64,000 bases of DNA from a phage. The notes under the pieces are model-generated. The model saw only the letters and a list, made by a program, of their open reading frames with translations. It was not told the DNA's origin and ran no database searches. Shown here one piece after another: positions 42,672-47,360 of this stretch. The position numbers and the translations under genes were made by a program. Within the stretch, counting starts at the first letter, position 1; each line of letters starts with the position of its first letter. The stretch lies in the sequence record PZ386974.1; one strand, 5' to 3'.

Positions 42672-43859
42672 TTAGAAATATTTTTTGTATGAATTGATTA
42701 CATTTTGGTCTACATCATTATCAATTTGTGCGACAAGATAAGAACTGATTTCAACTTCCTGAGGAGCTGCTTGAACTAAATCAGAGTTCAGATATTCACG
42801 AATCCAAGGATACGGATGCTTTGTCGGAGCATCAGTGATTGGGCATGGCAAACCACACTGTTTCATACGAGACACAGTCAAGTAATCAACAAAAGCACAC
42901 ATACTCTGTGTATTGATGCCTGGGCATGTACCGTCTTTAAAGAGGTGTGCAGCCCATTCCTTCTCTTGACTATTTACTTCCATAAAAATGTCAACTGCTT
43001 CTTGTTCACATTCTTTAGCAATTTGAACCCACTCATCACCGTCAGTACCAGATTGAAGTTGACGGATAATGTACTGAGTACCCTTGAGATGGAGTTGTTC
43101 GTCACGAGCAATGAACTTCATAATCTTTGCATTACCTTCCATAATTTCCATATTTTTATGGAAGTTGAAAGTACATGCAAATGATACGTAAAAACGAATA
43201 GCTTCTAAGGCGTTGATAACATGCAAACAGAGATAAAGAGACTTCATTAAATCACGCTTGGCGTTAAACATTATTTCTTCGTACATCTCAATATCATTCT
43301 GCTGGCATGAGCCTATTGAATACTCATAATTTTCCTTAGCATTTTCCCAATGACGAGTCTTGACTAGAACATCATCGTAATATTTACCTATTGATTCAGC
43401 TCGTTTCATGATTGCTTCGTCTAATACAATCTCATCAAATACCTTAGATGGGTCTGTATAAAGATTTCGCATAATATGAGTATACGAACGAGAGTGAATA
43501 GTTTCACTGAAAGTCCATGTTGCAACCCATGTATCTAATGAAGGGTCAGAAATCAGTGCCATAAGTACCGCAGATGGGGCCCTGCCTTGGATAGAATCTA
43601 ATAATGATTGATACTTAAGATTGTTTGTAAAGATGTCCTGTTGGAACTGAGGAAGCTTATTGAACTGCGCAGAGTCCAACATCAAGTTTACCTCTTCGGG
43701 GCGCCAGAAAAATGACAATTGCTTTTCGGTCAAATCTTCAAAAACTTTATGGCGTTGAATATCATAACGCGCAATACCAAGACCAGAACCAAAGAACATC
43801 GGTTCATTCAAAACATCGACTTGTTGTGTGTTAAAAACTGTACTCATTATATTTCTCAC
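42672..43859 (-). CDS. nrdB: ribonucleotide reductase small subunit NrdB (intron-less)
   Basis: 395-aa uninterrupted ORF with diiron ligand motifs. Confidence 0.93.
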   Translation of the reverse strand: MRNIMSTVFNTQQVDVLNEPMFFGSGLGIARYDIQRHKVFEDLTEKQLSFFWRPEEVNLMLDSAQFNKLPQFQQDIFTNNLKYQSLLDSIQGRAPSAVLMALISDPSLDTWVATWTFSETIHSRSYTHIMRNLYTDPSKVFDEIVLDEAIMKRAESIGKYYDDVLVKTRHWENAKENYEYSIGSCQQNDIEMYEEIMFNAKRDLMKSLYLCLHVINALEAIRFYVSFACTFNFHKNMEIMEGNAKIMKFIARDEQLHLKGTQYIIRQLQSGTDGDEWVQIAKECEQEAVDIFMEVNSQEKEWAAHLFKDGTCPGINTQSMCAFVDYLTVSRMKQCGLPCPITDAPTKHPYPWIREYLNSDLVQAAPQEVEISSYLVAQIDNDVDQNVINSYKKYF

Positions 43860-43900
43860 TTAGTTTTAACTCATCCATGAGTAAATTATAATCAAAAGTC

Positions 43901-46156
43901 TTAAAGCTTACAAGCAGAACAATCTTCAGCTTTAGGTGTTTCTAATTCATAGTCATCTGTACCCGACCCATCACGAGTGTTATGATAGTAGAGGTTTTTT
44001 CCGCCAAAGTACCAGAAGTAAAGCAGATCGTCAAGCATTACTGACATTGGCACTTTACCTTTCTCAAATACTGCAGGGTCATAGTAAGTATTAGCAGAAG
44101 CAGATTGGCACACCCATTTCAACATGATAGCAACTTGGGTCAAATAAGGTTTATTACCTTTCTTAGCAAGTTTCCACGCGTAGTCGTAAAGACTCATGTT
44201 ATGTTCGATATTAGGAACAACCTGTCGGAAGTTGCCTTCTTTAGATTCTTTAATACTTACTGGACCGCGCGGAGGCTCAATCCCGTTTGTAGAGTTCGAT
44301 ACTTGACTGCTTGACTCACAAGGCATGAGTGCAGACAACGTTGAGTTACGAATTCCATGTTCTTTGAGTTCAGCTCGAAGTTCTTCCCAGTCACAGACGT
44401 AGTTCGGGGCTGCGATTTGGTCAATCTTTTTATTGTACCAGTCGATAGGTAATTCGCCTCTAGACCATTTAGTGTCTGAATAATACTCGCAACGTCCTTT
44501 TTCTTTGGCGAGTTTGATTGAAGCTTTGATAAGGCCATATTGCAATCTCTCAAACAATTCATGAGTCAAATCGTTAGCGTCTTCATATGAAGCAAAGTTA
44601 GAAGCTAACCATGCAGCATAGTTCGTCACACCGACACCGAGGTTTCGACGCTTTTTAGCTTTTAAAGCTTCTGGAACCGGATAATCTTGATAGTCTAACA
44701 GGTTATCAAGTGCACGTACTTGTACTTCAGCAAGTTCATTAATTTTATCTTGGTCTTGCCAATCAAATTTATCTAATACAAAAGCAGATAATGTGCATAA
44801 ACCGATTTCAGCGTCAGGTCCATTCACATCATTAGTTGGAATAGCGATTTCACAACATAAGTTACTTTGACGAATTGGAGCTTTTTCACGAATAAATGGA
44901 GTGTAGTTATTCGTGTTATCAACAAACTGCGGATAAATTCGAGCAGTGCCAGAACGTTCAGTCATGAACAATTCAAAGAGTTCTAGTGCTTTGATTCTTT
45001 TCTTTCTGATTGTTGGGTCTTTTTCAGCTTTCTCATAAAGCTCACGGAATTTATCTTGATCTTCAAAGAACGAGTAGTATAGTTCGCCTGACATTTCGTG
45101 AGGGCTAAATAAAGTAATATAATCATTTTTGCCAAGGCGTTCCATCATGAGGTCATTAATCTGAATTCCATAGTCCATATGTCGAATACGGTTTTCATCC
45201 ACGCCTTTGTTATTTTTCAGAACTAATAGGTTCTCTACTTCTAAGTGCCACATCGGATAATACGCTGTAGCAGCACCGCCACGAATACCACCTTGAGAAC
45301 AAGATTTTACTGCAGTTTGGAAATGTTTCCAGAATGGAATAACACCTGTATGTCGAACTTCACCCATACCGATCTTAGAACCTTCTGCACGAAGCATACC
45401 AACGTTGATACCGATACCAGCTCGTTTAGAAATATATTCAATAATTGATGCTGAAGTTTTGTTAATAGATTTTAACGAATCACCGGCTTCAATAACTACA
45501 CAACTAGAGAACTGGCGAGTCGGAGTACGAGCACCTGCCATAATTGGGGTTGGCAATGAAACTTGATGAGTAGAAACGGCATCATAAAAACGAATAATAT
45601 GTTTCAAACGGTCATGAGTTTCGTTTTGGTGTAAGGCCATGCCAATAGCCATGATAGCAAACTGGGGAGTTTCATAAATCTTCCCAGTTGTTTTATCTTT
45701 AACTAGATATTTTTCTTTAAGCTGCATAGCACCAGCATAAGTCAGGTCAAAGTCTCGTCCATGTTTAATCTGTGAATCGAGATAAATGATTTCTTCTGCT
45801 GAATATTGAGACAACAGCTCAGGGTCATATTTGCCTTCATTAACACAATAAGAAATATGGTCGATAAAAGCAGGCGGTTCAAACTGCCCATATACATCTT
45901 TACGAAGTGCAAACATTAGCCCTTTGGCGGCGACATACTGATAATCAGGTTCTTCGACAGAAATCGAGTTAGCTGCAACTTTAATACAAATCTTCTGAAT
46001 ATCTTTGGTGCTCATCCCGTCAACAAGATGGGTCTTAATTTCTTCGTACAATTCATATGGGTCAATTTGTGTTCCTTCACATTGCCAAGTTAAGACTTGA
46101 ATAATTTTCTGTGCATCAAAATTTTGGGATACACCACTGCTCTTAGTTACTTGCAT
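43901..46156 (-). CDS. nrdA: ribonucleotide reductase large subunit NrdA
   Basis: 751 aa; class Ia RNR catalytic motifs, C-terminal CSACKL. Confidence 0.95.
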   Translation of the reverse strand: MQVTKSSGVSQNFDAQKIIQVLTWQCEGTQIDPYELYEEIKTHLVDGMSTKDIQKICIKVAANSISVEEPDYQYVAAKGLMFALRKDVYGQFEPPAFIDHISYCVNEGKYDPELLSQYSAEEIIYLDSQIKHGRDFDLTYAGAMQLKEKYLVKDKTTGKIYETPQFAIMAIGMALHQNETHDRLKHIIRFYDAVSTHQVSLPTPIMAGARTPTRQFSSCVVIEAGDSLKSINKTSASIIEYISKRAGIGINVGMLRAEGSKIGMGEVRHTGVIPFWKHFQTAVKSCSQGGIRGGAATAYYPMWHLEVENLLVLKNNKGVDENRIRHMDYGIQINDLMMERLGKNDYITLFSPHEMSGELYYSFFEDQDKFRELYEKAEKDPTIRKKRIKALELFELFMTERSGTARIYPQFVDNTNNYTPFIREKAPIRQSNLCCEIAIPTNDVNGPDAEIGLCTLSAFVLDKFDWQDQDKINELAEVQVRALDNLLDYQDYPVPEALKAKKRRNLGVGVTNYAAWLASNFASYEDANDLTHELFERLQYGLIKASIKLAKEKGRCEYYSDTKWSRGELPIDWYNKKIDQIAAPNYVCDWEELRAELKEHGIRNSTLSALMPCESSSQVSNSTNGIEPPRGPVSIKESKEGNFRQVVPNIEHNMSLYDYAWKLAKKGNKPYLTQVAIMLKWVCQSASANTYYDPAVFEKGKVPMSVMLDDLLYFWYFGGKNLYYHNTRDGSGTDDYELETPKAEDCSACKL

Positions 46157-46243
46157 ATATTCCTCAGTATAGGTTGATAGACATTACTCCAAACGGGATA
46201 GTATTTATCCCGTTAATTTATTATACACCTTTAAACTGAAGCG

Positions 46244-46498
46244 TTAATTATCCTTAGCAATAATTTCTTCGTATTCTTTAGGTGTCAAGACTGTGATATT
46301 GAAATAAACCAACGGTTCTTTTTCCATACCGAATCCACCACAGAATTCACGATATTCATAAATTCGTTCATGTGAATAACAAATGAATCGTTCACCTTTA
46401 ACTGTGATTTCACTATTTGGTGAAGGGATATCCAGTTCACTTGGATTTTTCATTTCAAAAATTGTGGTGCCATATGAATTAATAAAACGTAAAATCAT
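46244..46498 (-). CDS. hypothetical protein (nrdA.1-like)
   Basis: 84-aa ORF between td and nrdA. Confidence 0.5.
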   Translation of the reverse strand: MILRFINSYGTTIFEMKNPSELDIPSPNSEITVKGERFICYSHERIYEYREFCGGFGMEKEPLVYFNITVLTPKEYEEIIAKDN

Positions 46499-46499
46499 T

Positions 46500-47360
46500 T
46501 TATACCGCCATTTTAGCTTTGATAGCTGGATGAGATTCGTAATTTTTAAGAACGAAATCAGAATGTGTCATCGTTCCAGTAACCCAGTCCATTTGGATTT
46601 TTGTAGGCCAATTCTCAAAATTACTAGGCCAATTAATTTCAAGAGAACACAACTCTTTAGGTTCACGACGAAGAACTTCTTTGCATTGCTCTACGTGGTT
46701 GCTGTAGATATGTGTATTGCCGCCTGAGAACACTAAATCACCTGGGATAAGGTTACACATCTTCGCTACAATATGCGTCAAGGCAGCGTACGAGGCAATG
46801 TTGAACGGCAGGCCCAAGAAAACATCTACACTGCGTTGATACCATTGTAAATCAAGATGCCCGTTACGCACATTAAATTGATAGAACATATGACAAGGAG
46901 GAAGAGCCATTTGGTCAATTTCGGCCGGGTTCCATGCAGAAACTATTTGACGACGATCAGTTGGTAATTTTTTAATACGGTCGATTGTTTCAACCAATTG
47001 GTCTACACCACCAAAATCACGCCATTGCTTACCATAAATAGGACCAAGTTCGCCGCTATGATATCCAAGGTCTTTTGCCTGATTTTCATAGTTGTCGTCC
47101 CAAATAGTTTTACCTTCAATTAGACTGCCATGAGTACGAATACGCAAATCATTAACATTGGTAGAACCAGACATGAACCATAATAGCTCGGCAATACAAG
47201 CTTTCCATGCTAATTTCTTAGTTGTTACTGCAGGAAATCCTTTAGTAAGGTCCCAACGTAATTTAGTTCCGAACAGGGCAATAGTGCCGGTACCTGTACG
47301 GTCGTCTGTTTCGTAGCCATTTTCTAAGATATCTTTAATCAGGTATTGGTATTGTTTCAT
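46500..47360 (-). CDS. td: thymidylate synthase (intron-less)
   Basis: 286-aa uninterrupted ORF; active-site PPCH motif. Confidence 0.95.

Follow-up and report, generated by a model that had tools for sequence, protein, structure and literature searches.

In the T4 record, td and nrdB each consist of two exons joined together; their introns (1017 nt and 598 nt, respectively) carry I-TevI and a defective, deletion-form I-TevIII. I-TevI recognizes a long target of 38 bp (PMC2988022), and I-TevIII cuts at positions -14/-16, numbered from the insertion point (PMC1865063). The defect of the T4 I-TevIII has been confirmed (PMC2790892, PMC1865063), and the T4 nrdB intron is mobile only in trans via MobE (PMC2790892), the gene of which lies together with nrdB.1 in an nrdA-nrdB spacer of about 700 bp. 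T4 is an outlier among its relatives in endonuclease load (PMC2988022), and the uneven spread of T4-type introns has been described since the late 1980s, in papers that this source cites (PMC2988022). T2 (T2H, AY262132), a Tequatrovirus that recombines with T4, is an intron-less T-even phage with uninterrupted td (861 nt) and nrdB, and it has been the recipient when homing was studied in crosses with T4. RB69 has been predicted to have no homing endonuclease genes and has been reported to exclude T4 completely, with no recombination seen between the two; the same review of 2010 found no convincing evidence for intergeneric homing (PMC2993671).

The window, which here means the whole 64-kb stretch of DNA analysed, taken from a genome some 168 kb long, belongs to an RB69-type Mosigvirus, with 96-97.5% DNA identity to many records. 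Its minus strand almost certainly carries the standard frd-td-nrdA.2-nrdA-nrdB-denA block of this group in the common form, free of introns and homing endonuclease genes. The dihydrofolate reductase gene frd (47357..47944; Pfam DHFR_1) shares 4 nt with the beginning of td. It is followed by td (46500..47360), nrdA.2 (46244..46498; 84 aa, Pfam DUF5496), nrdA for the large subunit of ribonucleotide reductase (43901..46156; 751 aa, uninterrupted, with the Pfam ATP-cone, all-alpha and barrel domains), nrdB (42672..43847) and, downstream of it, denA for the GIY-YIG endonuclease II (42235..42645; 136 aa, identified by Pfam). RB69 (NC_004928), with about 96.5% DNA identity, has the same order, equal lengths for nrdA, nrdA.2, td and frd, and the same positions for frd, nrdA.2 and denA, the last being shared with T4. 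Introns and mobE are likewise missing there, as is an endonuclease gene in the nrdA.2-nrdA spacer. On the other hand, the annotated nrdB of RB69 is shorter by one codon, its product has a stretch of 41 residues out of frame relative to NrdB of the window and of T4, and RB69 has neither of two genes of the window, one for a seg-like free-standing GIY-YIG endonuclease (15341-16123) and one for DAHP synthase. The latter was considered as an unusual extra and dropped, since it is found in 213 records of the genus and its relatives and is thus not novel. T4 has orthologous genes in the same order and its insertion sites in the same conserved codons, although its exon DNA is only 77-80% identical to that of the window and it has nrdA.1 in addition to the introns, mobE and nrdB.1. 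In place of the long T4 spacer, the window has 53 bp between nrdA and nrdB (43848..43900, minus strand) with neither mobE nor nrdB.1. The spacer between nrdA.2 and nrdA (46157..46243, minus strand) is likewise empty, whereas some sister phages have a free-standing gene for a 211-aa endonuclease here, upstream of nrdA; in NRG-P0074 and WFL6982 this gene has 636 nt, and the window matches no more than the first 52 nt of that region. An earlier note on this DNA had taken the absence of introns to mark the phage as a naive target for homing from T4. The absence does not set the phage apart: the layout is that of RB69, where the intron-less state is already published, and most T4-like records have neither intron.

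The underlying observation of that note, that td and nrdB are single open reading frames with no intron, is borne out, and nothing was found against it. The td product of 286 aa, the size given before, scores 326 bits (cut-off 24.3, E=1.6e-97) over the full Pfam thymidylate synthase profile PF00303 (positions 1-266 of 266) and contains the 11-residue motif with the Cys that we take to be the catalytic residue. In a global alignment it is 82.2% identical over 286 aa to spliced T4 Td and collinear with it; two single-residue indels both follow residue 243, and the intron insertion site is free of gaps. For nrdB, the size needs correction. The frame of 395 aa (42672-43859) begins at a GTG at 43859, which adds four codons and overlaps the ribosome-binding region, while the ATG at 43847 gives a product beginning MSTVFN as in T4 and RB69, so that NrdB, the small subunit of class Ia ribonucleotide reductase, has 391 aa. 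It matches Pfam PF00268, the small chain of ribonucleotide reductase (129.7 bits, cut-off 33.6, E=1.7e-37), and is collinear with spliced T4 NrdB at 85.7% identity in a global alignment, with a single 3-residue indel at residues 176-179 and no gap at the intron insertion site. No frame-breaking non-coding insertion was seen in either gene in comparison with the spliced T4 proteins, RB69 and T2. As judged from the protein families, the two transcripts would yield thymidylate synthase and the beta subunit of class Ia ribonucleotide reductase directly, without splicing.

The earlier note had proposed a scan for group I introns with Infernal, and had named core elements within td or nrdB as the observation that would speak against it; none were detected. 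The Rfam scan of the window gave no match at the gathering score, and Intron_gpI (RF00028) gave none at E<=1 across the 64 kb and none at E<=10 across 41-49 kb. The same scan of the T4 locus, used as a control, returned nothing at the gathering score and, in E-value mode, only the td intron (40.3 bits), missing the nrdB intron. Rfam is an insensitive detector for ORF-bearing phage introns such as those of T4 td and nrdB, and it was therefore dropped as the main test; the decisive evidence for intron absence is the collinearity of the open reading frames together with the blast searches. When the td and nrdB introns of T4 and of Mosigviruses were used as blastn queries (word size 7, E<=0.01), no intron DNA was found in the window; tblastn of the 64 kb revealed no homologue of the six homing endonucleases used for comparison, and tblastn with MobE gave no match. 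Intron absence is a statement about the window, and nrdD, the third intron host of T4, falls outside it.

Both insertion points were placed by comparison with T4 and with the intron-bearing Mosigviruses NRG-P0074, WFL6982 and AV110. The position at which T4 td and the td of some Mosigviruses are interrupted lies between 46812 and 46811, after td nt 549 (the Gly183 codon), within an I-TevI-type homing site at 46801..46838 (minus strand, -27 to +11). The CNNNG cleavage motif of I-TevI is kept as CAACG at -27 to -23, and 32 of the 38 positions are identical to the intron-less T4 site, the differences being at -21, -20, -19, -1, +3 and +9. The T2 recipient site is also identical to T4 at 32 of 38 positions, with its differences elsewhere. 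In nrdB, where the introns of T4 and NRG-P0074 interrupt the gene, the insertion point is between 43175 and 43174, after nrdB nt 673, inside the Cys codon of the SFACTF motif. The surrounding I-TevIII-type region (43165..43194, minus strand, -20 to +10) has five differences from the intron-less T4 site (-14, -8, -2, +5 and +8), against one core difference in T2, and the change at -14 falls on one of the two I-TevIII cut positions. At the five nrdB core positions, the window and RB69 have the native Mosigvirus bases, and the homing sites of the two phages agree everywhere but at td +15. The substitutions at both sites are all synonymous, and the proteins are identical across them. The region of the MobE nick (43692..43734, minus strand; nick site and model from PMC2790892) is T2-like in the window: over nrdB nt 100-144 only 2 differences separate it from T2, and T4 and RB69 differ more.

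Mosigviruses with introns, namely NRG-P0074, WFL6982/WFK, AV110, SQ17 and FL31, share the gene order of the window, and their introns occupy exactly the positions that are empty in it. Their exons are 95-98% identical to those of the window, except for the 5' part of nrdB (89-93%), which includes a hypervariable block. A search of the literature for introns in Mosigvirus brought up nothing specific. In some of these phages the td intron encodes a 245-aa homologue that is 88.6% identical to I-TevI. The intron itself is only about 88-90% identical to the T4 td intron, and a T4-type co-conversion tract was sought around it without success beyond positions -1 and -4, the only ones between -30 and +20 at which these td exons differ from the window. 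The td intron of the genus is thus an older, diverged lineage, and its exon flanks are uninformative as to a past td intron in the window. The nrdB intron of some sister phages presents another picture. It is 99% identical to the RB3-type intron of Tequatrovirus and encodes an intact HNH endonuclease of 269 aa, and the alleles that contain it match T4 without a difference over -73 to +16, within exons that are otherwise of Mosigvirus type. Between -59 and -2, the intron-less nrdB allele of AV110 differs from T4 at 12 positions; it shares the bases of the window at -14, -8 and -2 and has neither of the changes at +5 and +8. Matches to the region come from about 851 records, of which about 197 contain most of the td intron and about 85 the full nrdB intron. 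Among the 40 closest records, introns are found in about 4 (td) and about 3 (nrdB), which suggests that spread within Mosigvirus is slow or restricted.

In a co-infection, I-TevI (of T4 or the 88.6%-identical Mosigvirus homologue), an intact RB3-type I-TevIII or MobE might cut td or nrdB of this phage and convert it to the intron-bearing form, a reading that broadens the range of donors in the idea of the earlier note. The chance that the two empty sites are live targets in this sense is judged to be only just short of even. In principle, they could act as recipients during mixed infection with an intron-bearing relative, where the endonuclease would cleave them and repair of the double-strand break would copy the donor. 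The td site argues for this possibility, with its intact CAACG, a match count equal to that of the T2 recipient, and near identity to the exons of intron-bearing Mosigviruses, and so does the T2-like MobE region. At nrdB, the WFL6982 gene resembles an AV110-type allele that has been given the intron and a T4-type tract, AV110 has three of the bases of the window, and the Mosigvirus intron is 99% identical to the RB6/RB10-type while the exons differ by about 20%. Against it stand the cut position at -14 and the changes at +5 and +8 that AV110 lacks, the low number of introns among the closest records, the defect of the T4 endonuclease I-TevIII and the reported exclusion of T4 by RB69, with no recombination between the two. 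The last two also bear on the claim in the earlier note that the phage is a naive target for homing from T4. This claim survives in so far as the introns are absent, the td site keeps CAACG and 32 of 38 positions, the MobE region is T2-like and sister phages carry introns at these sites, but it is weakened by these two points, by the five nrdB differences and by the phage's own GIY-YIG gene. T4 does not provide an active I-TevIII, whereas the enzyme encoded by RB3-type phages and Mosigviruses has its full length of 269 aa. Since the T4 enzyme is defective, RB69 is reported to exclude T4 and sister phages carry the introns, the realistic donors would be found among sister Mosigviruses and phages of the RB3 type, and not in T4 itself.

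It is also conceivable, although improbable, that the phage is immune rather than naive, synonymous changes near the cuts having been selected, or having drifted, to escape cleavage. The candidate changes are, in td, the Ser codon at -21 to -19 (TCA to AGT) and, in nrdB, position -14 (T to C). They lie beside the I-TevI cut (-23/-25) and on an I-TevIII cut position, all changes at the sites are synonymous, and introns are rare in the genus. However, intron-bearing Mosigvirus td alleles share the AGT codon, which is therefore no bar to occupation by the intron, and nrdB alleles of the AV110 type, with the same bases at -14, -8 and -2, appear to have been invaded. I-TevI tolerates many substitutions and its target is long, and synonymous divergence of about 20% is expected between the two genera in any case. 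A past presence of the introns followed by their precise removal, whether through recombination with an intron-less allele or via a spliced cDNA, is very improbable: homing-cycle models do predict gain, decay and loss, and ORF-less or truncated intron forms occur in relatives (matches with 24-56% coverage), but no intron remnant was found by blastn, the same sites are empty in RB69 and most close relatives, nrdB retains no T4-type co-conversion tract, and td has C at -1, where every intron-bearing allele compared has T.

The ordinary intron-free block thus remains the best account of the locus, and its two sites differ in how far their history can be read. The nrdB site appears, fairly firmly, never to have been invaded rather than to have lost an intron, because its flanks are native to Mosigvirus and not a T4-type tract. 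For td the same conclusion is weaker, because only -1 and -4 differ from the intron-bearing alleles; the exons of intron-bearing Mosigviruses are otherwise of the window type, and a site never invaded is probably not to be separated cleanly from one that lost its intron and had its flanks restored.

For the phage itself these results are of little consequence; their value for annotation is that td and nrdB are two intact single-exon genes and that nrdB starts at the ATG. More widely, T-even introns might still be spreading into the RB69-type genus, with the empty sites as true cleavable recipients, a reading supported by the sister-phage sequences and offered tentatively, with the odds leaning somewhat to the doubtful side. 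If it is true, the T4-identical tract around the nrdB intron of the sister phages would directly document intergeneric homing, with this phage as a natural "before" allele. Its empty allele and the sister phages form a clean before-and-after pair for homing from T-even to RB69-type phages, with the co-conversion tract visible.

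On the minus strand, the segment 42672-47360 encodes, in transcription order, td (46500-47360, 286 aa), the DUF5496 gene nrdA.2 (46244-46498, 84 aa), nrdA (43901-46156, 751 aa) and nrdB, with frd (47357-47944) upstream of td and denA (42235-42645) downstream of nrdB. Every gene of this block gives a full-length Pfam match to the expected family. The mechanical ORF of nrdB (42672-43859, minus strand) runs for 395 aa from a GTG that falls within the ribosome-binding region; NrdB is 391 aa rather than the 395 aa of the earlier note, because the ATG four codons further on gives MSTVFN..., as in T4 and RB69. 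A 6-kb query spanning the region matched 851 phage records, the best of which are Mosigvirus genomes (96-97.5% identity; RB69, 96.5%). The layout in the RB69 record is identical, with td and nrdB free of insertions, and its collinearity with the whole window is broken only by a few insertions and the divergence of the tail-fibre region.

In the T4 record, both td and nrdB consist of two joined exons, the td intron carrying I-TevI and the nrdB intron carrying an I-TevIII annotated as defective. The splice junctions of T4 were located in td (exon 1 of 549 nt, intron of 1017 nt) and in nrdB (exon 1 of 664 nt, intron of 598 nt). Td and NrdB of the window are collinear with the spliced T4 proteins (82.2% and 85.7% identity, respectively), with indels far from the junctions, and the insertion sites lie between 46812 and 46811 in td and between 43175 and 43174 in nrdB. 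When the introns of T4 and Mosigvirus, mobE and the endonuclease regions of sister phages served as blastn queries, no intron DNA was found in the window, the sole match being a 52-nt shared intergenic stretch adjoining nrdA.2, and tblastn with six homing endonucleases gave no match there. Rfam reported nothing in the window at gathering score, and Intron_gpI had no match at E<=1 across all 64 kb or at E<=10 over 41-49 kb. This negative result carries little weight alone because the control on the T4 locus mostly fails: nothing is reported at gathering score, and E-value mode recovers only the td intron (40.3 bits), missing that of nrdB. The intron-less reading of td and nrdB made in the earlier note is confirmed, standing on collinearity and blast. 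Only 64 kb are visible, and nrdD, the host of the third T4 intron, lies outside the window.

Some Mosigvirus genomes, 96-97% identical over shared DNA, have insertions in this region. The td intron is present in AV110, SQ17, FL31 and NRG-P0074, and in the two examined in detail, AV110 and NRG-P0074, it encodes an I-TevI homologue, intact at 245 aa. The nrdB intron of WFL6982, WFK and NRG-P0074 encodes an intact HNH endonuclease of 269 aa, and a free-standing 211-aa endonuclease gene lies upstream of nrdA in WFL6982 and NRG-P0074. Among the 40 closest of the 851 records, roughly four have the td intron and roughly three that of nrdB; in the whole collection, most of the td intron is held by about 197 records and the full nrdB intron by about 85, with truncated forms in some tens more. 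Against about 851 records matching the region, intron absence is therefore the majority state. It does not mark this phage out: td and nrdB of RB69 are likewise intron-less, T4 is the reported outlier in endonuclease load (PMC2988022), and RB69 is predicted to lack such genes (PMC2993671).

The td intron of Mosigvirus, a resident lineage that has diverged, is only about 88-90% identical to that of T4; apart from -4 and -1 (nt from the insertion point), its exon flanks stay native-type as far as the junction. The nrdB intron of Mosigvirus shares 99% identity with RB3-type Tequatrovirus introns, e.g. those of RB6 and RB10, and the exon sequence around it matches T4 exactly over -73 to +16, within an otherwise Mosigvirus gene. 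Between -59 and -2, the intron-less nrdB allele of AV110, otherwise very similar, shows 12 differences from T4. Judged by sequence, the T4-identical tract in NRG-P0074 and WFL6982 appears to be a textbook co-conversion tract, which would show transfer from a T-even-type donor to an RB69-type genome, that is, homing between genera; no paper reporting either was found in the literature. In the window and RB69 the nrdB bases are native, an argument that neither gene was ever invaded.

A block of ~100 nt in nrdB (window about 43250-43370, nt about 480-600 of the gene, ~75-190 nt upstream of the intron site) is hypervariable, with indels and only 37-47% identity among the window/RB69, AV110/WFL, NRG and T4 types. 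Elsewhere in the gene, identity within the genus is 90-100%. This block looks like a mosaic segment and is possibly linked to endonuclease-driven exchange. Set against window 42672-43847, the RB69 reference nrdB (NC_004928, 43201-44373) has a one-codon deletion at residue 42 and encodes 41 residues (about 254-294) in a frame different from that of the window and T4, flanked by compensating single-base indels. A sequencing or assembly error in the old reference is the probable cause; the alternative is that the double frameshift is real.

Other differences from RB69 are found in the window. A gene for a free-standing GIY-YIG (SegE-type) homing endonuclease (15341-16123, plus strand, 260 aa) separates inh from uvsW, which in RB69 are only 6 bp apart; it occurs in 11 of the 152 records matching this locus, NRG-P0074 included. 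The phage is thus not free of homing endonuclease genes. A class I DAHP synthase gene (aroF-like; 36112-37104, minus strand, 330 aa; Pfam DAHP_synth_1, E=5e-75) between cd and cd.2 is absent from RB69. Among phage records, 213 have the gene (101 with >=99% protein identity), commonly under the name phospho-2-dehydro-3-deoxyheptonate aldolase, and it is known as an auxiliary gene in this phage group. Two minus-strand ORFs, one of 204 aa replacing the gp30.6 region (32408-33022) and one of 82 aa between frd and frd.1 (47937-48185), have no RB69 counterpart at the same place and no Pfam match. The tail-fibre region (genes 34-37/38, about 55100-61860) differs strongly from that of RB69 (74% identity or no blastn match over about 3.6 kb), the usual host-range mosaicism.

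I-TevI cuts at -23/-25 of the td site (PMC2988022), and across its 38-bp site (-27 to +11) the window retains the CAACG cleavage motif, with six differences from the T4 intron-less sequence (-21, -20, -19, -1, +3 and +9); T2, an intron-less recipient strain in T4 crosses, likewise has six, at other positions. The nrdB site, which I-TevIII cuts at -14/-16 (PMC1865063), differs from T4 at -14, -8, -2, +5 and +8, whereas that of T2 differs solely at -2. In the stretch that corresponds to the nick site of MobE (nt 122-126 of nrdB, together with the FFWRPEE block; PMC2790892), the window is nearly identical to T2, and T4 and RB69 both depart from this type. With a td site well preserved, a MobE region like that of T2 and closely related alleles that appear to have been invaded, the empty sites might plausibly receive introns from sister Mosigviruses or RB3-type phages, at a likelihood a little short of even. 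Four facts weigh against the stronger proposal of the earlier note, a naive target for homing from T4: I-TevIII is defunct in the T4 record and the T4 nrdB intron is mobile only via MobE (PMC2790892), T4 is reportedly excluded completely by RB69 with no recombination seen between them (PMC2993671), exon DNA identity between the window and T4 is only 77-80%, and the phage has its own seg-like endonuclease gene. The intron-less td and nrdB are ordinary biology, a state already known from RB69.
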